Below, in pieces: positions 3,333 to 61,252 of a DNA stretch of 64,000 nucleotides. A program made the position numbers and the translations under genes. The stretch covers positions 141,280 to 205,279 of the IMG/VR virus record IMGVR_UViG_3300037487_000968, one strand, 5' to 3'. Positions within the stretch are counted from its first letter, which is position 1. Every line of letters starts with the position of its first letter. The DNA is from a virus. Lineage: Duplodnaviria > Heunggongvirae > Uroviricota > Caudoviricetes. A model generated the notes under the pieces. That model worked only from the letters and a program-made list of their open reading frames with translations. It was not told where the DNA came from and searched no databases.

Positions 3333-3535
3333 TTTACCTTCTTTGATTTCGGGAAATATCCTTCGGCAAGATCATCTGTGATCGAATTCATAAAGCGTGT
3401 CATACTTTCGACATCGCCGTGTGCCTGAAAGAACTTCTTTTTAGCACCATCGGCTAACCGTGTTACCTCAATGTGGAGATACTTATCGATGTCTTCAGTA
3501 ACTTCAAAATCAAACAGTGTCATCAATTTTTGCAT
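3329..3535 (-). CDS. hypothetical small protein
   Basis: 68-aa ORF in a coupled series. Confidence 0.3.
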   Translation of the reverse strand: MQKLMTLFDFEVTEDIDKYLHIEVTRLADGAKKKFFQAHGDVESMTRFMNSITDDLAEGYFPKSKKVK

Positions 3536-3962
3536 TTTCAGCCTTTAGTTTTCTAAGTCTTAAAACTTCTTTTGTTTCACCTTTGCTCTTCTTACCATTG
3601 CAAGGAGAACACATAAGTTGAGCATTGGATAAATTATCTGCACCGCCCAAAGCCCTGGCGAGCTTATGGTCATGGGTGAATAAAACATCTTCGTCTTCAC
3701 GCACACCATATAGGTTAAGGTGCCAGGCCATCTGCCCAGGTGATTGTTCCACCGCAAAGAATGTTCCTTCCAATCCGCAGCATACACACTTCATTCCTTT
3801 AGATGCTGCCCGAGCAAATGTTTTCATTCGCAGCGAGGATACACCTACCCAGATGCCGGATGGTCTTTGGATACGAGCTCGTTTTTCTTTCCAATGTGCT
3901 TTCACATCGGGTATGATTTCGGAGATCGGTATTACTTCAGATCGAAGGTATCTTTGTGTCAT
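3510..3962 (-). CDS. HNH homing endonuclease
   Basis: C-terminal FTHDHKLARALGGADNLSNAQLMCSPCNGKK is a canonical HNH motif. A Cys-rich Zn motif CVCCG lies upstream. Confidence 0.65.
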   Translation of the reverse strand: MTQRYLRSEVIPISEIIPDVKAHWKEKRARIQRPSGIWVGVSSLRMKTFARAASKGMKCVCCGLEGTFFAVEQSPGQMAWHLNLYGVREDEDVLFTHDHKLARALGGADNLSNAQLMCSPCNGKKSKGETKEVLRLRKLKAENAKIDDTV

Positions 3963-6508: not shown

Positions 6509-6593
6509 TGGTGCGGCTGGCCGGACTCGAACCGGCACACCTTTCGGCGAGAGATTTTAAGTCTCTTGTGTCTACCAATTTCACCACAGCCGC
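6509..6593 (-). tRNA. tRNA-Leu (anticodon TAA), class II with long variable arm
   Basis: The reverse complement folds as a cloverleaf: GCGGCTG acceptor stem, anticodon loop CTTAAAA, TTCGAGT T-loop, encoded CCA, 85 nt. Confidence 0.75.
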
Positions 6594-7467: not shown

Positions 7468-8016
7468 TTACGACTTTGTTATCGGCCTGTCAACGAGTTT
7501 ATAAAATCTGTGATTGTCGATAACCACAGCAAGTCGATATTGTTTTGACCATAGTGGATATTTGTATCTTTTTGCTTTCATTAAGGTAGGTGCAAGGTAG
7601 TGCGTAGCACCATTGGTTGGATCAGCAACTTCTTTCCTCATAACAGATTTAGCTACCTGTAAGGCCTGTTTCCAACTAGTCTTATCTATTGTGCTTTTTT
7701 GCTTTGGCTCCAAATGGAGACTCATTGCCGCTGCTCTTAATGCAGGATTATCATTGAAGATACTATACTGCTTAGGGGACAATACAACCTTACAAATCGT
7801 CTGTTTAACAGCTCGATTCATTGCTGTATAGGCCACAGCTATCTGACCCTTTAACGACTCCCCTCGAGCTTCACCGTAGATCATTGTGGCCAAACATTTT
7901 TCCTGCCTGACCTCTATCTTTGGTGTAACTTTAGCAATGGGACGATAACATATCGTTGGTGTGCCTTGTTGAACCATAATAGGCACAAAGGCTAGTGATA
8001 GGAGTAAGCATCTCAT
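7468..8016 (-). CDS. SleB-like cell-wall hydrolase (Hydrolase_2 family) with signal peptide
   Basis: N-terminal hydrophobic signal sequence, followed by IYGEARGES...AVAYTAMNR...ATHY motifs typical of SleB/CwlJ-type hydrolases. Confidence 0.6.
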   Translation of the reverse strand: MRCLLLSLAFVPIMVQQGTPTICYRPIAKVTPKIEVRQEKCLATMIYGEARGESLKGQIAVAYTAMNRAVKQTICKVVLSPKQYSIFNDNPALRAAAMSLHLEPKQKSTIDKTSWKQALQVAKSVMRKEVADPTNGATHYLAPTLMKAKRYKYPLWSKQYRLAVVIDNHRFYKLVDRPITKS

Positions 8017-8427: not shown

Positions 8428-8504
8428 TGGTGGGTCGGGAGGGACTCGAACCCCCAATCAACAAATTATGAGTTTGCTGCCTTAACCAATTTGGCCACCG
8501 ACCC
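8428..8504 (-). tRNA. tRNA-Met (anticodon CAT), elongator type, or Ile2 if lysidinylated
   Basis: Cloverleaf with G1-C72 pair, anticodon loop CTCATAA, T-arm GGGGGTTCGAGTCCCTC, encoded CCA, 77 nt. Confidence 0.75.
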
Positions 8505-9394: not shown

Positions 9395-9471
9395 TGGCCT
9401 GACCGGAGGGACTCGAACCCCCGACCTACAGCTTAGAAGGCTGTTGCTCTATCCAGTTGAGCTACGGTCAG
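9395..9471 (-). tRNA. tRNA-Arg (anticodon TCT)
   Basis: Acceptor CTGACCG/CGGTCAG, D-arm GCTCAACTGGATAGAGC, anticodon stem ACAGC/GCTGT with loop CTTCTAA, encoded CCA. The T-arm is identical to that of tRNA-Met. Confidence 0.75.
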
Positions 9472-9972: not shown

Positions 9973-10350
9973 TCAATGTAATGTTGGTAAAGTTTCTTCG
10001 TGGTCGATATTAATCAATCCTCCCTGTTGAGAGATATCAATAAGGTGATTGGTGAGATTTTTGTATGAATCGTTGAGTTCTCGTTCATTCCGTAGGATCA
10101 TACGAAGAATATTTCGGCAATGCTCTGGAGAAATATCCTGCACTTGCAGCATTTCTCCAGCTTCATTAAACCAAATTTCTTCTGGAAATACCTTACCATC
10201 CAGTGCAGTATAGGTTTTATGTTCCTGCCATTGTACCTTGAAGCCAGTATTATCGGGCAGTTCCTGTACCTCGATCACATATTTGTGTGAATTGACTATA
10301 GGTCTTACAAGTTCTTCAAGTTCTTCGTATGTTCCGACTTCTTGTTTCAT
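9973..10350 (-). CDS. hypothetical protein
   Basis: 125-aa ORF. Its start overlaps the stop of the HFGVE-family gene by ATGA. Confidence 0.45.
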   Translation of the reverse strand: MKQEVGTYEELEELVRPIVNSHKYVIEVQELPDNTGFKVQWQEHKTYTALDGKVFPEEIWFNEAGEMLQVQDISPEHCRNILRMILRNERELNDSYKNLTNHLIDISQQGGLINIDHEETLPTLH

Positions 10351-10556
10351 TCTTCAACTCCGAAATGATCTAACACATTTAACGCAGACTTCGGTCCAGT
10401 CTTATCAAAGACTACTTTAGCACATTCCCGGACAATCAGCTCAGCAAATTTCTCCAAGTCAAACTCAGATACTTCGTCTTCGAGCACGCCCGAAAACTGT
10501 GCCGGTGTCAAATTTATTCCAGCCTTAATGGCAAGTTCTAAAATTCGTTTATTCAT
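10347..10556 (-). CDS. Small protein of the FAELIVREC...HFGVE paralog family
   Basis: 69 aa with KFAELIVRECA and a DHFGVEE C-terminus. Homologous to five small ORFs at 32.9-35.2 kb. Confidence 0.5.
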   Translation of the reverse strand: MNKRILELAIKAGINLTPAQFSGVLEDEVSEFDLEKFAELIVRECAKVVFDKTGPKSALNVLDHFGVEE

Positions 10557-14256: not shown

Positions 14257-14445
14257 TTATCTTTTCCAGACATACATTGCACCTAATTTTAGAACAAGGG
14301 CAGTCATTTCTTCATCTATTGTTTCTACAATAAAAAAGCGATAACCTGCTCCTCGTGCCGTTTCGATTATAGCAAAATTATCTGTTTCAGCCATATCAAC
14401 CAGATGAGCTAATTTATCCGGTATCATAACATTTATCAGAGTCAC
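14257..14445 (-). CDS. hypothetical small protein
   Basis: 62 aa with a 4-nt overlap to the DD-carboxypeptidase gene. Confidence 0.3.
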   Translation of the reverse strand: MTLINVMIPDKLAHLVDMAETDNFAIIETARGAGYRFFIVETIDEEMTALVLKLGAMYVWKR

Positions 14446-15212
14446 AATTCCTTAACCAGCCTTTCCATATCGGGTATTCTAGTATGTGCGTTTTTACTAC
14501 CTAGTAAGACAAAGATTTTTCTACCTACAGCAGAGTTCATCATCATTACAAGGCATCCTCCTGCTGGATTAGTAAATCCAGTTTTAGATAATACTATACT
14601 AAACTTTGATGTGAGCGGGTTGGTATTATGTATTTTGATTGATCTTTTCTTAATCGGTATTTCGGCATTTGCCCGACTTGAAATATCAGTAATGGTATCA
14701 CTTAAAGAAGCAACCATAACCAGCTTGAGTAGATCGTGTGCGGTGCTAACATTACCTTTATCAAGTCCGGTCGGCTCTTGGTACCTTGTGTTAATCATAC
14801 CAATCTCTAATGCTTTCTCATTCATACGATCGACACAATTAGGGAGGTTGATACATAGAATTTGAGCGGCGAAGTTATCTGATCTAATGAGTGCTAATGT
14901 CAATAATTCGCGTCTAGTTAGTGTTTTTACTGTGCGTGGTATGCTGCTTTGCACTTGCCTTGTTTTTGGGATCAATATATCTTCGGTAAGATTTTGTTCT
15001 GAAGCAAGCAGAGCTACCATGAGTTTGCTAATAGAAGCAATTGGCCGAATGGTATCACCATCCTGCTCTCTTAATATTGTCCCATCTTCGTTTGCCACAA
15101 TAAAGCTTTTTGCGCTAAAGATTGGAACAGAAAAGGTGCGATGTTTAATGACTGCCGCGGCATTTCCTATTAGCATAGTTGTTGCACATACAGCTAAGAT
15201 CAGATTTTTCAT
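14442..15212 (-). CDS. Serine-type D-Ala-D-Ala carboxypeptidase/endopeptidase (PBP5/peptidase S11-like) with signal peptide
   Basis: Signal peptide, then SISK (SxxK), SDN (SxN) and KTG motifs in the correct order and spacing for a penicillin-binding protein fold. Confidence 0.65.
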   Translation of the reverse strand: MKNLILAVCATTMLIGNAAAVIKHRTFSVPIFSAKSFIVANEDGTILREQDGDTIRPIASISKLMVALLASEQNLTEDILIPKTRQVQSSIPRTVKTLTRRELLTLALIRSDNFAAQILCINLPNCVDRMNEKALEIGMINTRYQEPTGLDKGNVSTAHDLLKLVMVASLSDTITDISSRANAEIPIKKRSIKIHNTNPLTSKFSIVLSKTGFTNPAGGCLVMMMNSAVGRKIFVLLGSKNAHTRIPDMERLVKEL

Positions 15213-20487: not shown

Positions 20488-20522
20488 TATTTACCAAAAT
20501 AAAAGCACCCGAAGGTGCTTTT
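20488..20522 (-). terminator. Intrinsic terminator (AAAGCACC-TTCG-GGTGCTTT) with flanking T/A runs
   Basis: Perfect 8-bp stem with a tetraloop, then TTTTATTTTGG on the minus strand, downstream of the 20524-21108 gene. Confidence 0.55.
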
Positions 20523-20523
20523 A

Positions 20524-21108
20524 TTAGTGTGCCGGGCCTGTTGGCTGCGGTAAAACTTTGATTAACTCATCCGGCCAACCTAAGTAAAACCTCCACTCTT
20601 CATCTCTGATATGGATGGGTAAAGTCTTACGTTTGGCAAGAATTTCATAATAAGTAGGCTTGTAAGGCTTCTTCTTAGGTACAATAGTCTTATCAGCACC
20701 TTTATCGCTGTTGCATGTCTTACAAGAAGTACATACATTCAACCAATTAGTCTTACCACCATGCGATTTAGGTACCACATGGTCCAGTGTTAATTCAACA
20801 AGCTTCACCTTACCCTTAGCATCTTTACACCGGCTTGTAGTTTGAAGCTGGCAGGTAAAATCATCCCGCAAATAAACATTGGAACGACTGTACTTGAGAT
20901 TTTTGCTCCACTTAACATGCTCAGTCATGATAACAATAGATGGGACTTTCATTTCTAAGTGTTGAGATCTAACAACCCAACTTTCGTAAGATTTTAGAAC
21001 CTTCACTTTGCCTAAAAACATCAGCCGCATGGCTACTTGCCATGATACAACCGAAAGGGGTACATGGGATAGTGGTGTGCCATCGCTGTTAAGTATTAGT
21101 GTGTCCAT
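20524..21108 (-). CDS. HNH homing endonuclease
   Basis: LDHVVPKSHGGKTNWLNVCTSCKTCNSDKG motif. Forms a tandem pair with the HNH gene at 20022-20483. Confidence 0.65.
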   Translation of the reverse strand: MDTLILNSDGTPLSHVPLSVVSWQVAMRLMFLGKVKVLKSYESWVVRSQHLEMKVPSIVIMTEHVKWSKNLKYSRSNVYLRDDFTCQLQTTSRCKDAKGKVKLVELTLDHVVPKSHGGKTNWLNVCTSCKTCNSDKGADKTIVPKKKPYKPTYYEILAKRKTLPIHIRDEEWRFYLGWPDELIKVLPQPTGPAH

Positions 21109-21860: not shown

Positions 21861-23069
21861 CTACCTTTTGCTTTGCGGGGAATGACTATCTGGCTCATAC
21901 CAGGCAGTCATACCAAACGGCGCAACAATACTACGTTTCGCATCACCGTGTATAAGGAACAGTGTATCGCAGTACAAAGGATCGCCCCAACCACCACAAG
22001 GATAACCATCAGTCATCATAATGAAACGTTCTGGCTCGATATTGTTTTCCTTCATATATGTCCAGTTGCATTCGAAACTTGTGCCACCACCACCCTTGAT
22101 TTCGTAATCATCAATCTCATCAATTGTATCCGGTGTAAACTTGGCATGATTATAAACCTTTGTATCAAAGCACCAGACTTCTAATTCGAAGTCAGTAAAT
22201 TGCTGCATGATACCTTTGGTTTCACTCAGCAAGTCCCTGAGCATATCATCGCCCATAGAACCCGAACAGTCAATTGAAACTGCTGCCTTAACTTTAACAT
22301 CTTCTTTGGTGCCTGGGAGATAGATACCACTTGCTTGACTTTTACGCGAGCAACGGCTCCATGTAAAATCATTCTTAATCATGGATTGAATCTTCATGTT
22401 AAGGATCTCACGCCAATCCATTTGTGGCTCAACCAAATCTTTCAAGAGACGCTTAACACCACCCGGTGTATTACCTGCACCGGCAGATTTAGCAGCCTGC
22501 ATAACCGCAGCTCTGATTTCGTCTGAAAGGTTGCGTTGTTCTTCCTCAGTCATCGGCTCGCCTTTACCATCCCCTGGTTCAAGGTGGATGTCGAATTCGG
22601 GCCAATTGCTGTTTGGATCCTTCAGCAACAGTTCATACACTTCCTCTGCGAACATGCCTTTATACTTTGCATCGAAGCAGGCCTGCACACCAGATGTCTT
22701 TGGATCTGGAAGTTTGCCAATATTGTGTTCGTGGAGTTCATAGTTGATAACAAAGTCTGCTGCCGCGTTCCACATTTTGGGCTTGCGACCTCCACGACGA
22801 CTCATGTGATCATAAACACAGTGTTCAACTTCGTGTGCTACCAAGAAGATACACTCTTGTTTATTAAGTTTTGAAATGAAATCGCGATTGTAGTAGAAAT
22901 AACGACCATCAGTTCCAGCAGTTTTGCACCATGGCTGATCGGTAGCATCTCTTAAAATTAAACGAGTTGCAAGTGTACCCCAAAATGGTTGCTGGAGTAG
23001 TAGAGAAATACGTGCCCGGATAATCTGTTCCAGGACCGCTTCGGGGCTGGTATCTGTTGCTGCTGCCAT
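21861..23069 (-). CDS. von Willebrand factor A domain protein (CobT-like partner of the CobS-like ATPase)
   Basis: MIDAS motif VSIDCSGSMG (DxSxS) in a 402-aa protein, located next to the MoxR/CobS-type ATPase gene. Confidence 0.55.
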   Translation of the reverse strand: MAAATDTSPEAVLEQIIRARISLLLQQPFWGTLATRLILRDATDQPWCKTAGTDGRYFYYNRDFISKLNKQECIFLVAHEVEHCVYDHMSRRGGRKPKMWNAAADFVINYELHEHNIGKLPDPKTSGVQACFDAKYKGMFAEEVYELLLKDPNSNWPEFDIHLEPGDGKGEPMTEEEQRNLSDEIRAAVMQAAKSAGAGNTPGGVKRLLKDLVEPQMDWREILNMKIQSMIKNDFTWSRCSRKSQASGIYLPGTKEDVKVKAAVSIDCSGSMGDDMLRDLLSETKGIMQQFTDFELEVWCFDTKVYNHAKFTPDTIDEIDDYEIKGGGGTSFECNWTYMKENNIEPERFIMMTDGYPCGGWGDPLYCDTLFLIHGDAKRSIVAPFGMTAWYEPDSHSPQSKR

Positions 23070-31021: not shown

Positions 31022-31363
31022 TTATCTTCCTATAAGTTTATCAACCATTTCCTCTTCGGAAATAAATACCTTCGCATCCTGTAAGAACTGTATCAACCCA
31101 TCTATGTCCATATCGAAGACAGTTATTACTTGTTTTGATCCTATCATATATGGATTGCTAACTTCTATAACCATATTCTTCTTTGATGTAACACTTAGTT
31201 TCAAAGTCTGCCTATTTGGCCAATGTTCCTCGTGCTTACACGAAATGCGATCCGACTGATAAGAATCTTCAGCAATTGATAAAAGTTCTAATGTAGGCAT
31301 AATAGGAAGAGGTTGTATGTCATTATAACATACAACCTTTGGTATTACAACAGGTGTTGCCAC
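31022..31363 (-). CDS. hypothetical protein
   Basis: 113-aa ORF. Confidence 0.4.
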   Translation of the reverse strand: MATPVVIPKVVCYNDIQPLPIMPTLELLSIAEDSYQSDRISCKHEEHWPNRQTLKLSVTSKKNMVIEVSNPYMIGSKQVITVFDMDIDGLIQFLQDAKVFISEEEMVDKLIGR

Positions 31364-31372
31364 CTGTGTTTC

Positions 31373-32596
31373 TTACTTAGCAGTCTTGCCCTTAGTGACA
31401 GACATATCAATACCCAGTTCACGGGCAGTCTTAGCAGTGAGCATTTCAACAAGCGCCGCAGCACCATTTCCACCTGCACCACTGTTACCCATCACCACAC
31501 TCGGAACCCAAGCGCCTTGATAGTTACCCATCGCCTCAGCATACGCCTTGGAGACTTCAACATACGCAGCAAGTTTTGTATCCAAAGCACCGTCAGCGTT
31601 CATTCGCAGAGCCTTAGCCTGTGCATCACCTTCACCACGAAGAATCTGTTCCTTCTTGTATTGTTCAGCAGCCTTTGCACCGAGAGTTGCCACGGCCACA
31701 GCCTTTTCAGCGAAAGCAATTTCCTTGGCGTTCAGTGTTTCTTGTTCCCACTTAGCCTTAGCCGCAGTTGCCTTACCTTGTTGCTCAGTTGTAATCGCAT
31801 CTTGTTCAGCCTTCTTTGCGTTGGCGATAGAGATTTGAACACCGGTTGTAGATTGTTGACGTTGCTTGATCTGGTCTTCAACGATCTGGTCGTACTTGAT
31901 TTCGTTGATTGAGACCGGCTGTAAAATGATGCCATACTTCGTAATCTGGGATTCAGATTCACGCATCGGCTGACCCTTGTCATTCATCGCAATCTGAACC
32001 ACAGCAACTTGCTTATCAGCACCAGTGATCGGATCCTTCTGTGTGACTGTAACAGTCTTTGTCAGATACGGGCCGTGAATCAACTGATCGTCAATGTACT
32101 TCGGAATCTCAGGACGCTTTTCAGCCGATGATTCAGTTGAACTCATTGTGGGTCCGACATTGTAAATCACCTTCTGCATAGCCGGGCGAATCAATTGCTG
32201 CTCAATGGCGCCGACTGATCCGAAGTCCTTGTGAAGCGCCACGATTTGTTCGTGCTTCAAAGGCATCTGCCAGTTCACTGTTCCGGAGATGTTACCGTGA
32301 CCACCGTCATTGAAGCGAGTGGAGATTGATTCATCAGTTGTCTTTCCCTGATCTTTCACGGAACTAAACGAGAACTGATCACGCCGTTGATACGTTGTAA
32401 CTTTGCCGAACGCCTGGGCTTTCCAACCGGGTTCAGTAAAAGTATTCAGATCGCCGCCAAGCGCCTGAATCACCATGAGGTTCTTCGCATCAAGATTTTC
32501 CACCAGCATTGGCAGACAGATAAGAGTTGCCAGAAATGCGATTCCTGCCAACGCCGCCGTAAGAATTCGGCGGGGTGTGACTGTGGGTGTGTTCAT
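31373..32596 (-). CDS. SPFH/Band-7 domain protein (stomatin/HflK/flotillin-like)
   Basis: N-terminal TM segment, SPFH-like core and a C-terminal Ala/Glu/Lys coiled-coil EQILRGEGDAQAKALRMNADG typical of the HflK/stomatin family. Confidence 0.6.
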   Translation of the reverse strand: MNTPTVTPRRILTAALAGIAFLATLICLPMLVENLDAKNLMVIQALGGDLNTFTEPGWKAQAFGKVTTYQRRDQFSFSSVKDQGKTTDESISTRFNDGGHGNISGTVNWQMPLKHEQIVALHKDFGSVGAIEQQLIRPAMQKVIYNVGPTMSSTESSAEKRPEIPKYIDDQLIHGPYLTKTVTVTQKDPITGADKQVAVVQIAMNDKGQPMRESESQITKYGIILQPVSINEIKYDQIVEDQIKQRQQSTTGVQISIANAKKAEQDAITTEQQGKATAAKAKWEQETLNAKEIAFAEKAVAVATLGAKAAEQYKKEQILRGEGDAQAKALRMNADGALDTKLAAYVEVSKAYAEAMGNYQGAWVPSVVMGNSGAGGNGAAALVEMLTAKTARELGIDMSVTKGKTAK

Positions 32597-32619
32597 ATAA
32601 AAATTTTCCTGTGTATAGT

Positions 32620-32886
32620 TTACGATTTAATCACTGTTTCAGCGATTTGCTTCTCAAGGGCAACTTGCTCTTGATTGATTTCGAACAGTCGTTTTTGCAA
32701 ACGATATAGTTCGGTTTTTTCTTCCAGTGCGTGCTCGGCGTTCTCGACTGCGACAAGCAGTGGCGTCACCTTACGGAACATTGGAAAGAAAGGGGTACTG
32801 AACAGGAAGGGCATTATCACTTGCGTGAGAAAACCTACGAATAGCACAAATGCTACAAGCCCGCCAATTAGTTCTAAAAATACCAT
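32620..32886 (-). CDS. Small membrane protein, NfeD-like partner of the SPFH protein
   Basis: 88 aa with an N-terminal TM helix, sitting immediately upstream of the SPFH gene as in bacterial NfeD-SPFH operons. Confidence 0.4.
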   Translation of the reverse strand: MVFLELIGGLVAFVLFVGFLTQVIMPFLFSTPFFPMFRKVTPLLVAVENAEHALEEKTELYRLQKRLFEINQEQVALEKQIAETVIKS

Positions 32887-32942
32887 ATAAACTCCTTTGT
32901 GTGTAGTGTATTATATGTAATCAACAATAAACGGTCAATTGG

Positions 32943-33191
32943 TTATAAATCTTGTTGATTGTCTTCAAAGTGTTTTGTAATTACTGAGGCAAAATATTCC
33001 CGACGATATCGGTCTTTGGTCATAATAACATCAGTACATTCTTTAATGATTAGTTCGGCAAATCTTTCATTATATAGTTGAAACCAGGTCTGGTTGAATG
33101 TATTGCGATCTGCTACACCTTCAGACGCCATTGCGTTGATTGGATCAAATGCCTGTTCAGCAAGTTCTTTAATTCGGTTGTTCATTACCAA
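32943..33191 (-). CDS. FAELI(V/I)KEC-family small protein
   Basis: RIKELAEQA...RFAELIIKEC...ITKHFEDNQQDL. Paralog of the gene at 10347-10556. Confidence 0.5.
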   Translation of the reverse strand: MVMNNRIKELAEQAFDPINAMASEGVADRNTFNQTWFQLYNERFAELIIKECTDVIMTKDRYRREYFASVITKHFEDNQQDL

Positions 33192-33379
33192 CCCTCTACG
33201 CCGGATACTTCAATCTTAAATTCGCCCTCTTCACCTTCGATTGTAGTCCGTATTGTCATAGAAGTTACTGATCCAATTCCGCTCGAATTATCTTGTTCAA
33301 CTAAGATGGTTTCGATATTAGGAAATTTATCCATAATCTCTACCATCTTCTTCAAATCATCTCTGTGTATGTACATCAT
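33185..33379 (-). CDS. hypothetical small protein
   Basis: 64 aa. Its start overlaps the stop of the upstream HFGVE gene. Confidence 0.4.
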   Translation of the reverse strand: MMYIHRDDLKKMVEIMDKFPNIETILVEQDNSSGIGSVTSMTIRTTIEGEEGEFKIEVSGVEGW

Positions 33380-33618
33380 TCAACTCCGAAATGTTTTGCT
33401 AACTCTTCCCCAACATCAACATCGTAGTAATGAACTGTGCCGGCATCGAGCCGTTCACTACCTTGATATAAGTCGTCACTCACTCGGATGCATTCCTGCA
33501 CAATAAGTTCTGCAAACTTACCAAGTTGAATCATGGCAAACTGATTGTCACCTTCTTGTGTGTTTTTATCTGCATACGCATAGGCTTGCTTTTGCAGGGC
33601 TAAAAGTCGTTCGTTCAT
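33376..33618 (-). CDS. HFGVE-family small protein
   Basis: MNERLLALQKQA...KFAELIVQEC...AKHFGVE. Confidence 0.5.
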   Translation of the reverse strand: MNERLLALQKQAYAYADKNTQEGDNQFAMIQLGKFAELIVQECIRVSDDLYQGSERLDAGTVHYYDVDVGEELAKHFGVE

Positions 33619-33803
33619 TCTTTTACTCCGAAATGTTTAAACATCGCAACTACCCCTTCATGATCGTGCCCGCAAAACTCACCACATTCCCGAACAATCA
33701 ACTCGGCGAACTTATCCGGATTGAACTCGTTTGCAGGGCCGTCGTCCCCATCCCAGTTAGGGTTGGTAGCTTGTTTTTTAAGTTCTTTTAATCGTTCATT
33801 CAT
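33615..33803 (-). CDS. HFGVE-family small protein (start at the internal MNE, not the 138-aa extended frame)
   Basis: MNERLKELKK...KFAELIVREC...KHFGVKE. Its ATG lies in an ATGAATGA overlap with the upstream gene's stop, inside the conserved junction cassette. Confidence 0.5.
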   Translation of the reverse strand: MNERLKELKKQATNPNWDGDDGPANEFNPDKFAELIVRECGEFCGHDHEGVVAMFKHFGVKE

Positions 33804-34077
33804 GCTTCGGCTCCATCCAATGTGACTTACCCTTGGTAAGCATTTTTTTGATAAACTCGGCCTCTTCCCACGAAGTGCATACCATCCTGATTGTGGATGA
33901 TCCGTGATATGTTTCATCCCAAAACCACAGTTTGTTTTCAGTCGGTGAGTAGCACAATTCGTACAGATGATCTGGTCTGCACCCATCTCCTTGCGGGCAC
34001 TGACATTGGTAGTAAGTGAAACCGGTACCATCTATGTATTCCTTCTCGTCCCGCCACTTTGTTTTAGGTTCATTCAT
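33796..34077 (-). CDS. Cys-rich small protein ending MEPKHE
   Basis: 93 aa. Starts MNE and ends MEPKHE at cassette copy 1. Confidence 0.45.
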   Translation of the reverse strand: MNEPKTKWRDEKEYIDGTGFTYYQCQCPQGDGCRPDHLYELCYSPTENKLWFWDETYHGSSTIRMVCTSWEEAEFIKKMLTKGKSHWMEPKHE

Positions 34078-34331
34078 GCTTCGGCTCCAAATAATTTACC
34101 AAACTCGTTCGCTTTATTCTTGTCTTTGAACCAGAACATATACTTGAATCCTGGACTACAAGAACACTCTTTCCCTGCCTTAAACTTATCCAGATTAAAC
34201 GAGTATGCGGACGACACTAATACCTCACCTGCTTCACGCAGCGGTTCAATATAGGTGATGATTTTCTCATTCTCGCCAGTCTCAGGATACGGACGAGGAA
34301 TATTGATGGTAAACAGAAATTCTTCATTCAT
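34074..34331 (-). CDS. Small protein ending KLFGAEA (frame-variant of the HFGVE end)
   Basis: 85 aa. Starts MNE. Its C-terminus is encoded by the same cassette read in another frame. Confidence 0.45.
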   Translation of the reverse strand: MNEEFLFTINIPRPYPETGENEKIITYIEPLREAGEVLVSSAYSFNLDKFKAGKECSCSPGFKYMFWFKDKNKANEFGKLFGAEA

Positions 34332-34542
34332 GCTTCGGCTCCAGACTACCGCGTTCTAACCAAAGCGCAATGGCATTGTTGGATGTGTGGGATACATGTT
34401 CAATCCCTTTACTATCCACAAAAATAATGTCTTTACCGTCAAACTTTAGGTGACCATTCTCTGGTCTGATGATCATGTCATACGAATCATTGTGTGTCAG
34501 AAAACCTAACACAACGGGCCGCAGGATTGTATATTCATTCAT
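34324..34542 (-). CDS. Small protein ending LEPKHE
   Basis: 72 aa. Starts MNE and has an 8-nt overlap with the downstream gene. Confidence 0.45.
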   Translation of the reverse strand: MNEYTILRPVVLGFLTHNDSYDMIIRPENGHLKFDGKDIIFVDSKGIEHVSHTSNNAIALWLERGSLEPKHE

Positions 34543-34741
34543 GCTTCGGCTCCATACCCTCTGGGTTTAACAGTTGAAAACAAACATACTCCTGGCAATC
34601 GCTGCCAGGGTCTCTTTTTTCTTTATGTAGGCGACACCAACCATCGCCAGTGTAACGACCCTCGGCGTCCGCATTAAAGTTATAGTAGGCACAGTGGTCA
34701 CAGCAAGTATAACCAGGGGCACAATCCGGACATAGTTTCAT
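34535..34741 (-). CDS. Cys-rich (zinc-binding) small protein ending MEPKHE
   Basis: CPDCAPGYTCCDHCAYY...CRLH. 68 aa. Confidence 0.45.
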   Translation of the reverse strand: MKLCPDCAPGYTCCDHCAYYNFNADAEGRYTGDGWCRLHKEKRDPGSDCQEYVCFQLLNPEGMEPKHE

Positions 34742-34935
34742 AGAATTTTCTTATTTAGAATACCAGCCTCTGCCAGTGAGTAGAAAGCAATAACTAGGTT
34801 GAACATCGGTACCATAGCGATCAACGCACTAATTAGTAAATCAGCAATAGTAAGATACCCTTGCTTCTTTCGTGTACTATAGAAAATACATACAAAAGAA
34901 AATAATACCATTAAAAAATAAAGTGTTCCCATCAT
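34738..34935 (-). CDS. Small two-TM membrane protein
   Basis: 65 aa and highly hydrophobic. Confidence 0.4.
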   Translation of the reverse strand: MMGTLYFLMVLFSFVCIFYSTRKKQGYLTIADLLISALIAMVPMFNLVIAFYSLAEAGILNKKIL

Positions 34936-35123
34936 TCGACTCCAAAATGTTTCTTCACGTCCTCGGGCCTGATGTTACCGTGGCCATCTGTCAACCCCAG
35001 GCACTCCTTGACAATAAGGTCAGCGAACATTCTGTAGTCGAAATCTCGCAATCCTTCGTGATCACTGCCGTAGGGAGCAATTAGACCGGCCTTTCTTGCT
35101 AGATCTCTTATATGATCAGTCAT
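34932..35123 (-). CDS. HFGVE-family small protein (start at internal Met MTDH)
   Basis: IRDLARKAGL...MFADLIVKEC...KKHFGVE. Has an 8-nt ATGACTGA overlap with the upstream stop. Confidence 0.5.
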   Translation of the reverse strand: MTDHIRDLARKAGLIAPYGSDHEGLRDFDYRMFADLIVKECLGLTDGHGNIRPEDVKKHFGVE

Positions 35124-36941: not shown

Positions 36942-36999
36942 AACTGATCCTTTGTCCTATTATAATACAAAATACAAAATAGGTCAACAATACCGGAGA

Positions 37000-39773: not shown

Positions 39774-40631
39774 ATGTATTTAGCATACACTTATTTAATC
39801 ACAAATAAAATTACCCATCAATTTTATTATGGATCTCGTTATCAAAATATAAAATTAAAAAGAACGCCGGAACAAGATCTTTGGATATTTTATTTTACTT
39901 CATCAAAAGAAGTAAAGAAATTATTAAAAGAATACAATAAAGATTTATTCGAAATATCTATAGTATTCAAATCCGAAAACTACGATGAATGTTACTGGCA
40001 GGAACAAGATCTAATAAAAGAAAATATAATAAATCCTTTGTGTATGAATCTGACATATACTGATAAATCAGCAGGAAGGCACATATTTTCAATGGCAGGT
40101 AAAACTCGATCCGAAGAAGCCTGTAAAAAATCATCAATCTCATTAAAGGCGTATCATGAGAATGAACCAGCTGATGTTAAAGCAGCAAGATTCGCTCTCC
40201 AGAAAGCCGCGTGGAATAGAAGATCGGAGGAATCGGAAATTGAACGCATTGATAAAATGATATTTTCTCGTAATAATAAGACAGAAGAAGAAAAATTAGT
40301 TATGTCGAGAAATAGAAGGATAGCCCAGACAGATAGAGTGGAAGAAGCTAAGTTGATTTCTGTTTTCCGACAAAAAGAGACAAAAGCAAATTGGTCTCCC
40401 GAAAAGAGAGAAGCATTTATAAATAAAGTGAAATCTTGTGTTAATAAGGGTAATGCTAAAGGTGGGACATACCAGATCACTGATCCGGCCGGTAATACAT
40501 ATATTATTGTTAGTTTAAGTAAATTTTGTAGAGAAAATAATCTACCATTTGATTCAATGAGAGGTATTGCTGCAGGAACCCAAAAGTGTTGTAAAAATCA
40601 TCCAGGTTGGCGATTACATAAACTTGACTGA
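39774..40631 (+). CDS. GIY-YIG homing endonuclease (Seg/I-TevI-like, free-standing)
   Basis: N-terminal YTYLITNKITHQFYYGS matches the GIY-x10-YIG core (compare I-TevI GIYQIKNTLNNKVYVGS). NUMOD-like repeats and a C-terminal DNA-binding tail follow. The gene is AT-rich and on the opposite strand. Confidence 0.7.
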   Translation: MYLAYTYLITNKITHQFYYGSRYQNIKLKRTPEQDLWIFYFTSSKEVKKLLKEYNKDLFEISIVFKSENYDECYWQEQDLIKENIINPLCMNLTYTDKSAGRHIFSMAGKTRSEEACKKSSISLKAYHENEPADVKAARFALQKAAWNRRSEESEIERIDKMIFSRNNKTEEEKLVMSRNRRIAQTDRVEEAKLISVFRQKETKANWSPEKREAFINKVKSCVNKGNAKGGTYQITDPAGNTYIIVSLSKFCRENNLPFDSMRGIAAGTQKCCKNHPGWRLHKLD

Positions 40632-45357: not shown

Positions 45358-47208
45358 TCATGCCAAACTCGCAAACAGGTGAATCTGCATCTGCATCTTA
45401 AATCCATGCTGCATACAATATTGCCCAACATACTTGTGGTTAGCCTCATTCTTTTCCATATCAAGTAACCCCGGTTCCCACCATGAAATAATCTCATCAA
45501 CTGTGCTACGCTCTGCCATAGTGATCTCACCCTTCTCTGCCCTGAGTAGTTTGATCTTCTGCGGGAAAGAATTATAAATGTTCATTGGGCTACAATAGAT
45601 ATCCTTGCCTGTCTTTACTTTCCAATCATGTGCCCACTGTGGCACATTGTTATAAGGACTTTCTGTATCTGCACTCATAACAAACTTCAAGCAGTCTGCA
45701 CGATCTAAAATAGTTTTAGATGGTGCGTAATACTTCACGGCCTTACCATCCTTCTCCATGCACTTGGGAGAGCAAACGAGTGTAACACCGTCTGGTACTA
45801 CTGTATCAGGAATACCGTTGCTTTCAACTTGTACTGCTTTGAAATACATCTTTTGTTGATATTGCATAAACGCAGAGATGTTTTCTTGCAGCAACGGTTC
45901 GCCGCCAGTCATTACTAATACGATATTAGGATACAGCTTGCCTATCCGAGTTTTGTTCAGTGCCCAATCTGGTGCAGCAATTCCTTTTTCGTTGTTAAAG
46001 TACCCGCAAATAGTATTGTGGATCTTAGTTTCAATCTGTATAAACGTCATCCAATCGCCATCGTCAAAGAAAGTATCACAATTATGTACTACACATCCGT
46101 TAGCAATATATGTATGTGTATCTTCTACTTCGAAATTATAAACGGTACGTTCGGCAGTTTTACTACCGAATAATCTTGCCCATCCTCTTCCGTCGGTTTC
46201 ATTTACAAACTCTACACTCTTTACTACTTTACCGTTATGAATAAATTCCGCAACCTTTTCGCGTATTTTACTATGTTCGGACATTTTAAGCTCGCTCTGA
46301 ACAAGTGGTAAGAATAAAGTATCATACCCTTCTTTAGCAAATAGCGCCTTGCGTTTTTCCATCCACTCTTTACCACGAGGAGATTTTTTAACCCATAGTG
46401 AGTCATCTGCCCAAACTTCAATTACTTTCTTTTGTCCGTTTACAACAAAGTCGGGTACTTTATGCTGGATAACTAAATCCCCGGCACCTACAAAAGTAAT
46501 AGGTAATCCTTCACATATTTTTTCTACTTTAATCTCTAATCCAGATTTAAGTTGTGTTTCTCGATTAACCCAAGATTTTAGAGCAGTAGCAGGATCTTTC
46601 ATTGGATTACCTGCGCCCGTTAAGCGTTCGATATTTTTCTCTCTAAACTCCGGGTCTTCCCATAACGCAGATAATCTTGTTGCTGCTTTATCTTTTTCAT
46701 CCTGAGACATAGGTGCACGATTTGCCAGGTCAAACGCAGGATTAAACACTTTCCTGCGGTCAGATAACGACCAGTGTACAATTTTGTCACCTGCCACTAA
46801 ATCCTCGGCATTAACCCAACTCCTATTAGAGGTTAAGAATGGATGTTCTGGCGTACACCAAACCGGCTCGCCTGAGCTGGTTACTTTAACAATTTTGTCT
46901 GCGATAGACCTGTATGTGCGTGTAACCTTCTTAGGAACCATTTTATCCTTGTCCCACGACATAACCATGTCACCTACTTTGACTTGGTCGATTCGTTTAG
47001 ATTTTCCATCTGCCATTGTAATCTTAGTAGACGGTACAAAGCAAAAGCTACAATCTAAATTGCACTTTGCTAGACGGATGAAGAGTGCGGGCGTGCCAGC
47101 GTATGGTCCTTCTCCCTGAAGAGTGAAGAACATGCTTGTTACAAACAGGCTATCCTTGGGTGCATCCTTAAAATACTTCTTACCGATAATTTCATTAGTT
47201 CCGAACAT
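45358..47208 (-). CDS. queE: 7-carboxy-7-deazaguanine synthase QueE (radical SAM) interrupted by an intein
   Basis: N-extein GEGPYAGTPALFIRLAKCNLDCSF plus C-extein CDTFFDDGDW reconstitute the QueE CX3CX2C-DT signature. Inserted between them are 321 aa bearing intein blocks A (CFVPSTKITMADG), B (TPEHPF) and G (VVHN|C). Confidence 0.8.
   Translation of the reverse strand: MFGTNEIIGKKYFKDAPKDSLFVTSMFFTLQGEGPYAGTPALFIRLAKCNLDCSFCFVPSTKITMADGKSKRIDQVKVGDMVMSWDKDKMVPKKVTRTYRSIADKIVKVTSSGEPVWCTPEHPFLTSNRSWVNAEDLVAGDKIVHWSLSDRRKVFNPAFDLANRAPMSQDEKDKAATRLSALWEDPEFREKNIERLTGAGNPMKDPATALKSWVNRETQLKSGLEIKVEKICEGLPITFVGAGDLVIQHKVPDFVVNGQKKVIEVWADDSLWVKKSPRGKEWMEKRKALFAKEGYDTLFLPLVQSELKMSEHSKIREKVAEFIHNGKVVKSVEFVNETDGRGWARLFGSKTAERTVYNFEVEDTHTYIANGCVVHNCDTFFDDGDWMTFIQIETKIHNTICGYFNNEKGIAAPDWALNKTRIGKLYPNIVLVMTGGEPLLQENISAFMQYQQKMYFKAVQVESNGIPDTVVPDGVTLVCSPKCMEKDGKAVKYYAPSKTILDRADCLKFVMSADTESPYNNVPQWAHDWKVKTGKDIYCSPMNIYNSFPQKIKLLRAEKGEITMAERSTVDEIISWWEPGLLDMEKNEANHKYVGQYCMQHGFKMQMQIHLFASLA
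46081..47043 (-). mobile_element. Intein (aa 56-376 of the QueE precursor), large enough to carry an endonuclease domain
   Basis: Starts with Cys1, has a TxxH block B, ends YIANGCVVHN and is followed by a +1 Cys that is also the third Fe-S ligand. Confidence 0.75.
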
Positions 47209-47807: not shown

Positions 47808-48123
47808 CCCATGTATGCATGTATCTAGATAGACGTGCCATCTTATTAATGCGGGCTTTTTCTATACCCTCAGCTGTAACACCTAGGCCAGCGTTTGTGA
47901 CCATATCTACCAGAGCCAATACATCACCTAATTCCATTTCTAAATTTTCGAGATTGGTTGTTGTAGAATTAGGATTTTTACCTACAACACCAAATCTCTT
48001 AATCTTTGAAGCTGCCTGAATAACTTCAGCACATTCTTCCTGCAAAATGTTTAGGCATTCTTCCTGATGATCATTTACCTGTTTCAAATTTCTTCTCCCA
48101 GTTCCATGCATGTGAAATAGCAT
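47788..48123 (-). CDS. mazG: MazG-like nucleotide pyrophosphohydrolase
   Basis: EECAEVIQA...ELGDVLAL EExxE/D motifs of the all-alpha NTP-PPase fold. Confidence 0.6.
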   Translation of the reverse strand: MLFHMHGTGRRNLKQVNDHQEECLNILQEECAEVIQAASKIKRFGVVGKNPNSTTTNLENLEMELGDVLALVDMVTNAGLGVTAEGIEKARINKMARLSRYMHTWGDSSGV

Positions 48124-49045
48124 CTTTGATATTATATTGTGGTTCCCAATTTAGTAACTGTTTTGCCTTGGAAATATCTGCTACTAATTCTGCCGGGTCA
48201 CCTAACCGTCTAGGCATATATTCAATTACTGGTGCAACACCAACAACCTCGCCTGCATACTGAACCAGTTCTTTAACACTAACACCATCACTGCCACCAC
48301 CGAGATTAAATGCTTCGTTGCCATTCCCGGCATCGAAGAAATCTATTGCCTTAGCATGAGCATCAGCCAGATCTGCGATATGAACATAATCGCGAACACA
48401 GGTGCCATCCTTAGTGGGATAATCATTACCAAATAAAGGAAATGATTCACCCTTTAATATCTTATTACATAAAATAGGAATAACGTGTGTTGCCGGACGT
48501 TGAACATATCCAAAACGGCAGGCTGGATCAGCACCTGCTGCATTAAAGTATCTAAAATTTACATACTTTAGACCATACGCCCTGGCATAATCCTTAATCA
48601 TTAATTCGCCTGCTACTTTTGTCGATGCATATGGATTCTCTGGATCATAGTATAGACCTGCTTCTTTAAGTGGTCCATCTTGACCTTGCCGACCATACGT
48701 ATTTCCGCTAGAACTAAAGATAATGTTCTTCATCCCATTAGCGACCATGATGTCGAGCATACCCTTCATTTTTACCACATTATTTGCGTAATACTTCTCC
48801 GGTTCTGTTACGCTCTGTTCTACTAGATGCTCTGCCGCAAGATGTATAATAGTATCATAGTGAAAAATATTCGATTGTAGGAAACTAAGATAATCCTCTT
48901 CAAATATAGTTGCTGGTGTATCCCAATTCTTAATCTTACGATCTACTATAGATACCTGATGTCCTTGCTCGTGTAATTTGTGTGCTACTTGCGTACCAAC
49001 AAACCCGCTACCACCCGTAATTAAAATTTTATGCTTTTTTGTCAT
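48071..49045 (-). CDS. NAD-dependent sugar epimerase/dehydratase (GalE-like, extended SDR)
   Basis: N-terminal TGGSGFVG Rossmann motif and YASTK catalytic YxxxK. 324 aa. Confidence 0.7.
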   Translation of the reverse strand: MTKKHKILITGGSGFVGTQVAHKLHEQGHQVSIVDRKIKNWDTPATIFEEDYLSFLQSNIFHYDTIIHLAAEHLVEQSVTEPEKYYANNVVKMKGMLDIMVANGMKNIIFSSSGNTYGRQGQDGPLKEAGLYYDPENPYASTKVAGELMIKDYARAYGLKYVNFRYFNAAGADPACRFGYVQRPATHVIPILCNKILKGESFPLFGNDYPTKDGTCVRDYVHIADLADAHAKAIDFFDAGNGNEAFNLGGGSDGVSVKELVQYAGEVVGVAPVIEYMPRRLGDPAELVADISKAKQLLNWEPQYNIKDAISHAWNWEKKFETGK

Positions 49046-59610: not shown

Positions 59611-60237
59611 TCAAGGATTTCTTACTGCTTCTGCCCGTTTGAAACGATGAGGACCAACTAATTCCAATCTTGAAGGATTATTCATAATTTCTGGATCCTT
59701 CATGAATTCACTTTTAGGATTTACCCAAAACCCTACCATGTTACCTTTTAATGGTAACTTTCCATCTTTAACTGGAATTGCCTCTTCAAATTCTCCACCT
59801 GCCTTTGCTGTTCCATAGCTTCTTTTATGTTGTCCCTGCAATTCTTGCCCAGGTTTTGAAACTATTTTCCTCATTTTTTCATGTTTAGAAAGTTCCGGGG
59901 CATTGACTCGAGCTTGACCTCTAATATCTCTACTTTGGCTTGTGCCTAATGTTTTATATCTTGATTCTACAGCATTTCTATCTAAAACTATCACAGCATG
60001 ACGACCGACTCCTGCCTCCTGTTCACCCGACCCTGTACCGCCCGAAGCATAATTCCAGTCTCTTGTTGTGCTCACAGTTGGTAATTCTGTCTGTGCCTGA
60101 GTAGATACTTGAGGTCCAGAAGCTGCCTTAAGAAAGCCTGATGCAAGAACAGCCTTTGGATCTCCAGTGGCGTGATAGAGATAATTTCCACCAACCGCTT
60201 CTACCATAAATTCCTCGGCTCTCATTTGCAAGCACAC
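59611..60237 (-). CDS. hypothetical protein (weak ADP-ribosyltransferase-like motif order)
   Basis: 208 aa. YHAT...STT...EFEE occur in the order seen in H/R-S-E ADP-ribosyltransferases, but this is only suggestive. Confidence 0.4.
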   Translation of the reverse strand: MCLQMRAEEFMVEAVGGNYLYHATGDPKAVLASGFLKAASGPQVSTQAQTELPTVSTTRDWNYASGGTGSGEQEAGVGRHAVIVLDRNAVESRYKTLGTSQSRDIRGQARVNAPELSKHEKMRKIVSKPGQELQGQHKRSYGTAKAGGEFEEAIPVKDGKLPLKGNMVGFWVNPKSEFMKDPEIMNNPSRLELVGPHRFKRAEAVRNP

Positions 60238-60617
60238 CTTGCGGCTTCTTTTCCTAGGTAGTCATTTATAGCTGCTTTAATGGCATCCTCGGCCAATATG
60301 CTACAGTGTATTTTGACTGGAGGGAGGGCGAGTTCTTCAACAATCTGACTATTCTTAATGCTTCCTGCTTCATCAAGCGTCTTACCCTTGACCCATTCTG
60401 TGACAAGAGAACTGGAAGCAATCGCCGACCCGCAGCCATACGTCTTAAATTTCGCATCTTGAATAATTCCATCTACTACTTTGATCTGTAGCTTCATTAC
60501 ATCTCCACATGCCGGTGCCCCCACCATTCCTGTACCAACATTTAGATCGGCACTATCCATTTTTCCCACATTACGTGGATTTTCGTAGTGATCTACTACT
60601 TTCGAACTATAGGCCAT
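60222..60617 (-). CDS. iscU: Fe-S cluster assembly scaffold IscU
   Basis: Near-colinear match to bacterial IscU: MAYS.KV.DHYENPRNVG...GAPACGDVMKLQIKV...KTYGCGSAIASSSL...PPVKIHCSILAEDAIKAAI. Confidence 0.85.
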   Translation of the reverse strand: MAYSSKVVDHYENPRNVGKMDSADLNVGTGMVGAPACGDVMKLQIKVVDGIIQDAKFKTYGCGSAIASSSLVTEWVKGKTLDEAGSIKNSQIVEELALPPVKIHCSILAEDAIKAAINDYLGKEAARCACK

Positions 60618-61217: not shown

Positions 61218-61252
61218 TTAAAGCCAAAATAAAAGGGACCGAAGTCCCTTTC
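61218..61252 (-). terminator. Intrinsic terminator (AAGGGAC-CGAA-GTCCCTT) with T-tract
   Basis: 7-bp stem with a GNRA-like loop, followed on the minus strand by TTTTATTTTGGCTTT, downstream of the 61267-61632 gene. Confidence 0.55.

Follow-up and report, generated by a model that had tools for sequence, protein, structure and literature searches.

The stretch of DNA analysed here, referred to as the window, comprises 64,000 nucleotides (nt) of IMG/VR virus record IMGVR_UViG_3300037487_000968 (positions 141,280 to 205,279) and is part of an uncultured large (giant) phage of the T4 superfamily. Its minus strand holds four exact copies (0 mismatches) of the 21-nt sequence TGGAGCCGAAGCATGAATGAA, here called the cassette, at four consecutive joints between small genes; the same sequence gave 0 matches in 100 dinucleotide-preserving shuffles, and a scan of the 64 kb at up to 4 mismatches returned no fifth copy. 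The genes joined in this way, designated modules A to D, and the four copies, designated J1 to J4, are as follows (lengths in amino acids, aa; L numbers denote related loci from public collections).

34535 to 34741, minus strand: module A, a 68-aa Cys-rich ORFan (MKLCPDC...) that anchors the upstream side of the array in every relative
34324 to 34542, minus strand: module B, a 72-aa ORFan (MNEYTILRP...), found in the window, L004, L005 and L006 and absent from L008, L022 and L076
34074 to 34331, minus strand: module C, an 85-aa ORFan (MNEEFLFTIN...FGAEA), found in the window, L005, L006 and L076 with a different downstream partner each time
33796 to 34077, minus strand: module D, a 93-aa Cys-rich ORFan (MNEPKTKWRDE...), found only in the window and near-identical assemblies
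34534 to 34554, minus strand: J1, joint of A and B, where A reads ...GMEPKHE-stop and B starts at the ATG at 34542-34540
34323 to 34343, minus strand: J2, joint of B and C, where B reads ...SLEPKHE-stop and C starts at the ATG at 34331-34329
34069 to 34089, minus strand: J3, joint of C and D, where C reads ...LFGAEA-stop, shifted by one base, and D starts at the ATG at 34077-34075
33795 to 33815, minus strand: J4, joint of D and the gene F1, where D reads ...WMEPKHE-stop and F1 starts at the ATG at 33803-33801

Within the cassette, GGAG is followed after a 7-nt spacer by an ATG, and each of the two frames other than that of the start contains a TGA stop. Its three frames read WSRSMNE (open, the frame of the start), GAEA-stop and EPKHE-stop and, therefore, it starts one frame and stops two. 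At the ends of A, B and D it encodes (M/L)EPKHE followed by TGA, with an 8-nt overlap ATGAATGA with the next gene, and at the end of C it encodes FGAEA followed by TGA, with a 4-nt ATGA overlap. All four downstream genes open as MNE at the cassette ATG, with GGAG 7 nt ahead of it, and the bases directly outside the 21 nt are unrelated from copy to copy. The initial annotation, made from the letters of the window, had described four exact copies at these positions, the (M/L)EPKHE ends with their TGA in three of them, the reading as FGAEA and a stop after a one-base shift in the fourth, and the GGAG about 7 nt before an ATG that opens MNE in a 4- or 8-nt overlap; the copies were reproduced with 4 matches, 0 mismatches and none in the shuffles, the reading frames of A, B and D and the end of gene C agree with that description, and the start signals and overlaps were found at all four copies. 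Assemblies from four different samples show the four-copy layout, three of them with 100% identity to the window (ERZ4201064, SRR35119657 and ERR3856787), of which one is probably the window's own source assembly and the last, the shortest contig, covers just three of the four copies, and the fourth with 99.7% (ERZ27287891); thus, the layout is no assembly artefact.

The block is embedded among five paralogs of the F family, a very large and uncharacterised family of small phage proteins of the form MNER...KFAELIVREC...HFGVEE. All five lie on the minus strand of the window.

34932 to 35123, minus strand: F0, 63 aa, upstream of the block, ending HFGVE-stop with GGAGTCGAATGATG
33615 to 33803, minus strand: F1, 62 aa, downstream of J4, MNER...KFAELIVREC...HFGVKE-stop
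33376 to 33618, minus strand: F2, 80 aa, joined to F1 by the F-type junction CGGAGTAAAAGAATGAACGAA (33610-33630)
32943 to 33185, minus strand: F3, 80 aa, divergent, MNNRIKELAEQ...KHFEDNQQDL
10347 to 10556, minus strand: F5, 69 aa, far from the block, with the canonical junction CGGAGTTGAAGAATGAAACAA (10342-10362)

In public data, the family amounts to 6113 representatives at 50% clustering (E <= 1e-3), and its termini are almost invariant, since among the best 150 of these 6113 representatives 93 start with MNER and 65 end with HFGVEE. Pfam and PHROGs provided no annotation for it. The predicted structure of F is small, helical and confident (predicted local distance difference test score, pLDDT, 85), and its structural matches are uncharacterised proteins of uncultured phages only.

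The module bodies were compared pairwise at the protein and DNA levels and no similarity was found (best E = 0.1). A hidden Markov model (HMM) of the F family did not match the six-frame translations of A to D and of E, a further small gene found in relatives, and Pfam and PHROGs gave no usable matches for modules A to E. A and D encode small Cys-rich proteins (CxxC...CCxHC and CQCPQ...C), each with a handful of homologues that are metagenomic only, and the conserved cores of A and D stop before the tail encoded by the cassette. Distant homologues of A lack the EPKHE tail, and the more distant homologues of D end in HWMEPA, HWMEKV or HWMEPNNE.

No hairpin or inverted-repeat potential is present in the 21-mer, RNA folding of 81-nt windows around each copy was no better than in shuffles (z 0.06-0.68), and no Rfam family matched at the cassette. 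There are no terminator-like sites at the cassettes and no strong minus-strand promoter matches at or beside the four of them, the 21-mer itself being too short for a promoter. The promoter matches nearest to the block are the following.

36959 to 36987, minus strand: sigma-70-like promoter match, TTGACC-17-TATAAT, 11 of 12 positions
32910 to 32938, minus strand: next sigma-70-like promoter match, downstream of the block, 11 of 12 positions

Both matches bracket a run of about 4 kb with about 17 tightly overlapping small minus-strand genes, including the cassette block, which would form one polycistronic, probably early, transcription unit.

The origin of the cassette appears to lie in the joints of the F family itself. 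In a more distant phage (loci L039 and L045), two F genes are joined by TTCGGAGTTGAAGCATGAATGAACGA, read as HFGVEA-stop/MNER, and this joint, GGAGTTGAAGCATGAATGAA, differs by 2 nt (TT versus CC) from the core of the 21-mer and is read in the same frame as FGAEA-stop at J3; therefore, the 21-mer is a variant of the joint between two F genes. Of its two readings, FGAEA is ancestral and EPKHE is the +1 form, and the 21-mer appears to be a local, homogenised form of a junction that is found widely and has the consensus GGAG-(TT/CC)-GAAG-(A/C)-ATGAA-Y-GAA. The F-type 20-mer GGAGTTGAAGMATGAAYGAA occurs in more than 120 IMG/VR contigs among the matches listed, frequently several times per contig and 200-300 nt apart. 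Among the matches listed, 147 F-type junctions have a non-F gene upstream in 27 cases and downstream in 31 (about 20%), and in two of them the +1 frame is used (...ELKNE-stop), an exact analogue of EPKHE; thus, the capture of unrelated genes and the use of two frames are general and extend beyond the window. Fourteen of the same 147 are kept as leaders behind an earlier stop, which suggests that the F-type cassette travels with the downstream gene. The +1 reading or an untranslated leader is seen at L081, L162 and 14 other IMG/VR loci, all on unrelated viral contigs. Stand-alone homologues of D end with TGGATGGAGCCTGCCTGA (HWMEPA-stop) and, therefore, D itself supplies the opening 8 nt of its cassette; fusion of the end of D with an F-type joint may have given rise to the CC variant, read in the EPKHE frame.

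Searches of public collections, with the cassette and with A, B and D as queries, yielded ten informative related loci. In the gene orders below, a slash stands for a cassette-type junction, and E, G and H are further small genes, unrelated to the others.

Window: A/B/C/D/F
L004: A/E/B/F
L005: A/B/C/F
L006: A/B/C/G
L008: A/F
L022: A/E/F
L009: A/E/F
L011: A/E/...
L054: A/G
L076: A/E/G and C/H/F

Cassette-type junctions thus join 14 distinct combinations of upstream and downstream partners. Across the ten loci, the cassette is identical or 1-3 nt off while the neighbouring gene differs, and the insertions, deletions and replacements of genes between close relatives are bounded by it, the modules that it flanks being ORFans. 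Between L008 and L022, which come from the same metagenome, the difference is a base-precise indel made up of gene E and one cassette. Orthologous junctions in relatives carry 1-3 substitutions (EQKHE, ELKHE, EPKNE and FGAKA) and still join genes, EPNNE being a further reading among such junctions; in L005 and L006 they differ at 3 of 21 positions, roughly as in the adjacent gene bodies. Separately, the whole block lies upstream of a gene for a 407-aa Band_7/SPFH-like protein in the window (31321-34741) and downstream of it in L001 and L004 (L001 2393-6480).

Identity between relatives changes abruptly at the cassette. The bodies of gene A are 80-95% identical among the loci, and a gene enclosed by two cassettes reaches 99-100% where its neighbours stand at 83-90%: between the window and L004, B is 99.5% identical and A 87%; between L005 and L006, B is 100% identical, A 90.4% and C 92.1%; and E reaches 98.6-100% between loci in which A stands at 83-89%. 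L005 and L006 share 262 mismatch-free nt, a stretch that opens 4 nt ahead of J1 and closes 27 nt past J2, and they diverge by about 9% to either side of it; the match of the window to L004 over B runs exactly from cassette to cassette (34553-34323). In the L009/L011 and L004/L022 comparisons, the last mismatches in A lie 4-10 nt ahead of the cassette and, where the downstream gene differs, homology stops exactly after ATGAATGAA. Fisher tests of the identity jumps gave p = 3e-6 to 4e-8, and the discontinuities and homology ends lie 0-27 nt from the cassette, which is the limit of resolution set by single-nucleotide polymorphisms (SNPs). Recent single-gene exchange between diverged genomes, with endpoints at or next to cassettes, is therefore well supported. 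The KFAELIVREC motif is a second short conserved patch at crossover points between the window and L004. A 223-nt block of 95% identity, from about 33713 to about 33490 of the window (minus strand) and within 6594-7015 of L004, spans from this motif in F1 to the same motif in F2; since the block ends at the motifs, they constitute a second crossover patch that yields chimeric F genes.

Selection at the nucleotide level was sought in codon usage at the junctions. GGA encodes the Gly of the xFGV motif in 33 of 33 distinct junctions of relatives, versus 21% of Gly codons genome-wide. A further 207 F genes from 118 other contigs, chosen without the search pattern, use GGA at this place in 194 of 207 cases, versus 28% of Gly codons in the rest of these genes; the spacing from GGAG to the following ATG is exactly 7 nt in 153 of 207, and the stop is TGA in 174 of 207. 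These figures indicate nucleotide-level selection for a Shine-Dalgarno (SD) sequence at fixed spacing with an overlapping stop and start, which is the anatomy of translational coupling; an SD inside the upstream open reading frame (ORF) and a stop overlapping the next start are both present at all four cassettes. The peptide at the junction is not conserved, and distant homologues of A and D lack the tail. The initial annotation had argued that conservation across frames means selection on the nucleotides and not on a peptide. That argument holds for GGAG and its spacing, and for the varying peptide, but probably does not extend to every base of the 21. The perfect identity of the four copies is better explained by recombinational copying or homogenisation than by selection on every base, because orthologous junctions with 1-3 substitutions still work.

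The anatomy of the cassette, its derivation from an F joint, the cassette-bounded presence and absence of genes, the identity jumps and the selection for GGAG, all drawn from sequence comparison, point to what is probably a translational-coupling linker that doubles as a homology patch for the swapping of single genes. According to this proposal, the cassette would have arisen as the joint between tandem copies of the F family. A ribosome ending the upstream gene in either frame would terminate atop the next start and could re-initiate there, which would matter in a long operon in which most genes bring no such signals themselves. Recurring at one junction after another, and in relatives that co-occur, these 20 or more bases would constitute a portable homology patch, or linker, at which recombination could delete, insert or swap whole small genes while each gene stays stopped, started and coupled, and captured unrelated genes would gain ends encoded by the cassette (MNE..., and ...EPKHE or ...FGAEA). 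The exchanger would be homologous recombination, rather than another copying mechanism, with crossovers placed in the repeated 20-odd bases by the recombination-proficient T4-type replication machinery, for which small patches of homology are described as sufficient (Singer et al. 1982, as cited in PMC2839356). Within a genome this would cause deletion, duplication and homogenisation of copies, and between co-infecting relatives insertion and replacement. Both suggestions of the initial annotation, a translational-coupling module and a site for shuffling small gene modules, are in line with these data, the former with the codon-level selection for GGAG in the wider junction family and the latter with the gene orders and identity jumps that map to cassettes. 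It had recommended a search for the 21-mer in the rest of the genome and in relatives, which have the cassette at gene junctions, and a comparison of the gene content between copies, which varies exactly as a shuffling site predicts; absence from relatives, together with flanking genes that are simple tandem duplicates, had been named as what would speak against it, and the cassette is present in relatives and the bodies are dissimilar.

Several observations weigh against the proposed linker. All of its support is comparative and comes from metagenome assemblies. Twenty-one nt are short for efficient homologous recombination. The resolution of breakpoints is about 10-30 nt, with about one SNP per 10 nt and, therefore, crossovers are placed at or beside the cassette and not strictly inside it. 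At the 3' end of A, the cassette has 3 of 21 variable sites versus 65 of 187 (p = 0.08), and its divergence of 2.9% versus 13.1% is a trend that is not significant alone, so that extra conservation there is suggestive only. The translocation of the block relative to the gene for the 407-aa protein has endpoints off any copy of the 21-mer, and some local synteny breaks fall at junctions with no recognisable cassette, such as upstream of A. Furthermore, an SD-like core precedes only about one third of the window genes, as judged from crude gene calls and, thus, the dependence on GGAG in this host is an assumption.

Other explanations would dispense with part or all of this mechanism. The repeats could be a consequence of gene arrival, if each gene came in through illegitimate or other recombination and brought its leader (GGAG...ATG) along, with the 21 nt identical by descent and only those arrangements that preserve stops and starts surviving, as in a Hendrix-type selection-filter model. 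This is unlikely, although partly compatible with the linker: the F-type cassettes that persist as leaders behind an earlier stop suggest that the cassette belongs to the downstream gene, and some rearrangement endpoints in the region lie away from any cassette, but every swapped module has the same cassette on either side, read in two frames, indels such as that between A/E/F and A/F are base-precise, and the 14 partner combinations share one and the same joint. Copies are also identical within one genome while orthologous junctions differ between lineages, which points to on-going exchange between copies. It is rather improbable that the cassette is purely an expression signal with no role in recombination, that is, an optimal arrangement of SD, spacer, start and stop, or a RegA-like operator or RegB-like GGAG-specific RNase site, kept identical by selection on the mRNA. 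In that case one would expect the strong selection that codon usage in the junction family shows for GGAG at 7 nt, and that for the TGA overlap, and all four copies span the initiation regions of genes that follow one another and might be regulated together. Nevertheless, the spacer and flanking bases vary in the orthologous junctions of relatives, so exact identity is not required; neither RNA structure (z about 0) nor an Rfam match was predicted, a limited scan of ORFs beside the polymerase detected no RegA-like family, and the cassette-bounded differences in gene content would be left unexplained.

The repeat-gene-repeat-gene layout resembles integron cassette arrays and the phage has HNH and SegE-like endonuclease genes, so that the cassette might be recognised by dedicated recombination machinery for moving promoterless gene cassettes, for instance an integron-like integrase or a homing endonuclease. 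This seems very improbable, because there is no integrase, transposase or serine recombinase among the ORFs of at least 150 aa in the window, which covers 64 kb of a larger genome, the endonuclease genes lie at least 5 kb away and outside the modules, and the 21-mer lacks inverted repeats and hairpins. Least credible of all is an origin of the four genes by recent tandem duplication, or from frame-shifted F genes, with nothing but the ends still recognisable; all of them start with MNE and end with a joint of the family type, and FGAEA of C resembles HFGVEA, but their bodies are dissimilar in protein and DNA, the F-family HMM found nothing in six frames of A to E, and homologues of A and D elsewhere have ends of their own that differ.

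Regarding the phage itself, the DNA polymerase of the window is at most 43% identical to those of Atu_ph07/Rak2-like jumbo phages, and the window also encodes a ligase, AAA ATPases, HNH and SegE-like endonucleases and tRNAs. No close relative among isolated phages came up when the region was compared by megablast, and tblastn with an F protein had no match among them. An exact 19-mer was also searched in 185,579 prokaryotic genomes, and the 7 single matches, none encoding relatives of A to F, were judged to be chance; most single 19-mer matches in metagenomes, and degenerate-pattern matches in viral contigs, were also in unrelated contexts. Other features of the window are listed below.

3510-3962, 20524-21108 and 21861-23069, minus strand: three HNH endonuclease genes
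39774-40631, plus strand: SegE-like GIY-YIG endonuclease gene, on the opposite strand and 5 kb from the cassette block
60222-60617, minus strand: NifU/IscU-like iron-sulfur scaffold gene (Pfam E = 4e-51), adjoining the DNA polymerase region
20494-20521 and 61224-61251, minus strand: two copies of a terminator-like element in which a G+C hairpin (TTCG loop) precedes TTTTATTTTGG, the flanking sequence being shared too
6509-6593, 8428-8504 and 9395-9471, minus strand: tRNA genes for Leu (TAA), Met (CAT) and Arg (TCT)
7468-8016: cell-wall hydrolase gene
14442-15212: D-Ala-D-Ala carboxypeptidase-like gene
45358-47208: gene for a 616-aa protein with a QueE-like radical-SAM domain
48071-49045: NAD-dependent sugar epimerase gene

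The HNH and SegE-like endonucleases could possibly act as local stimulators of recombination. The related contig L078 carries genes for Fe-S biosynthesis, an Fe-superoxide dismutase and an eIF-1a-like protein.

The way in which phages gain and lose small accessory genes, which often serve in host takeover or anti-defence, is a long-standing question, and the competing answers are homology-guided exchange at linkers and random illegitimate recombination filtered by selection. Explicit linkers are rarely identifiable. The linker proposed here is explicit and minimal (21 nt), its functional content is defined, it is repeated gene by gene, and natural variants show gene-by-gene swaps; it predicts the sites of natural recombinants and could be of use in the design of synthetic phage operons, as it holds SD, start and two-frame stops in 21 nt. 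The mechanism may be common in uncultured phages, because the junction occurs in the more than 120 viral contigs mentioned above, among the matches listed, and the family comprises more than 6000 clusters. A further reading is offered tentatively, as a possibility that does not have the better chance: the ends of the F family and the 21-mer might be an evolved plug-and-play adaptor (SD, start and two-frame stops) by which almost any captured ORF would end correctly and translation of the following gene would re-initiate, kept at least partly because it promotes the capture and the exchange of single accessory genes among co-infecting phages. If this were true, it would represent a translation-level counterpart of integron cassettes and of the promoter early stem-loops (PeSLs) considered below, across thousands of uncultured phage lineages, and the spread and invariant termini of the F family could partly reflect an adaptor role and not only the function of the protein.

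Neither this joint nor the F family was found described in the searchable literature, and the cassette shares features with several known systems. Overlapping stop/start junctions (ATGA, TAATG) bring about translational coupling in phage and bacterial operons. Such ordinary coupled junctions also have an SD within the end of the upstream gene and a stop overlapping the next start, but their sequence differs from one unrelated gene pair to the next and synteny does not break at them. Integron attC sites are imperfect palindromes of 57-141 bp that the integrase recombines as folded single strands. Integron arrays resemble the block in their promoterless small genes, recurrent separating site and gene-by-gene presence or absence, whereas the 21-mer has no such structure and no integrase was found among the window ORFs of at least 150 aa.

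PeSLs are repeated intergenic cassettes of about 100 bp in which a sigma-70 promoter and a terminator hairpin precede an SD and a start codon (PMC2839356, PMC4122927), and their recombination has been demonstrated experimentally via mini-circles (Arbiol et al. 2010, PMC2839356). They are alike (Arbiol et al. 2010; Comeau et al. 2014) in being short repeats that flank ORFans in plastic regions of T4-superfamily phages, in bounding indels and replacements between close relatives, in carrying expression signals, by which a gene that has moved is expressed at its new site, and in the homologous recombination proposed between copies. In contrast, the cassette described here has 21 nt with neither promoter nor hairpin, lies inside two overlapping coding regions, acts on translation, is read in two frames and goes back to the ends of a protein family, and the evidence for it is comparative only. 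It is, thus, not a PeSL: a sigma-70 promoter and a stem-loop are missing, and the flanking of ORFans and the bounding of indels are shared. The two promoter regions that flank the block were considered as a repeated PeSL-like element and rejected, as they have little in common beyond the hexamers.

Another parallel is the insertion of gene 68 in mycobacteriophage Island3, which was read as recombination between short repeats (Pope et al. 2011, PMC3029335). There, the inserted ORFan shares C-terminal codons and nucleotides with the upstream gene (gp67/68) and the repeat brackets an indel relative to a close relative, but it is one event with a repeat of about 50 bp in one frame, and not a recurrent family of cassettes with translation signals common to many genomes. 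Finally, the linkers of the modular theory (Susskind & Botstein 1978; Botstein 1980; Clark et al. 2001), as they are cited in PMC2839356 and PMC3029335, are likewise short conserved boundary sequences, common to genomes that otherwise differ, that serve as crossover points and ensure the correct placement and regulation of an incoming module, and at the present locus the sequence is conserved at module boundaries and the breakpoints coincide with the cassette. According to the same citing papers, classical linkers separate multi-gene modules of temperate lambdoid phages and can rarely be identified, whereas here the unit is a single small gene and the linker is explicit, stands up to four times in a row and has a defined content of SD, start and two-frame stops.

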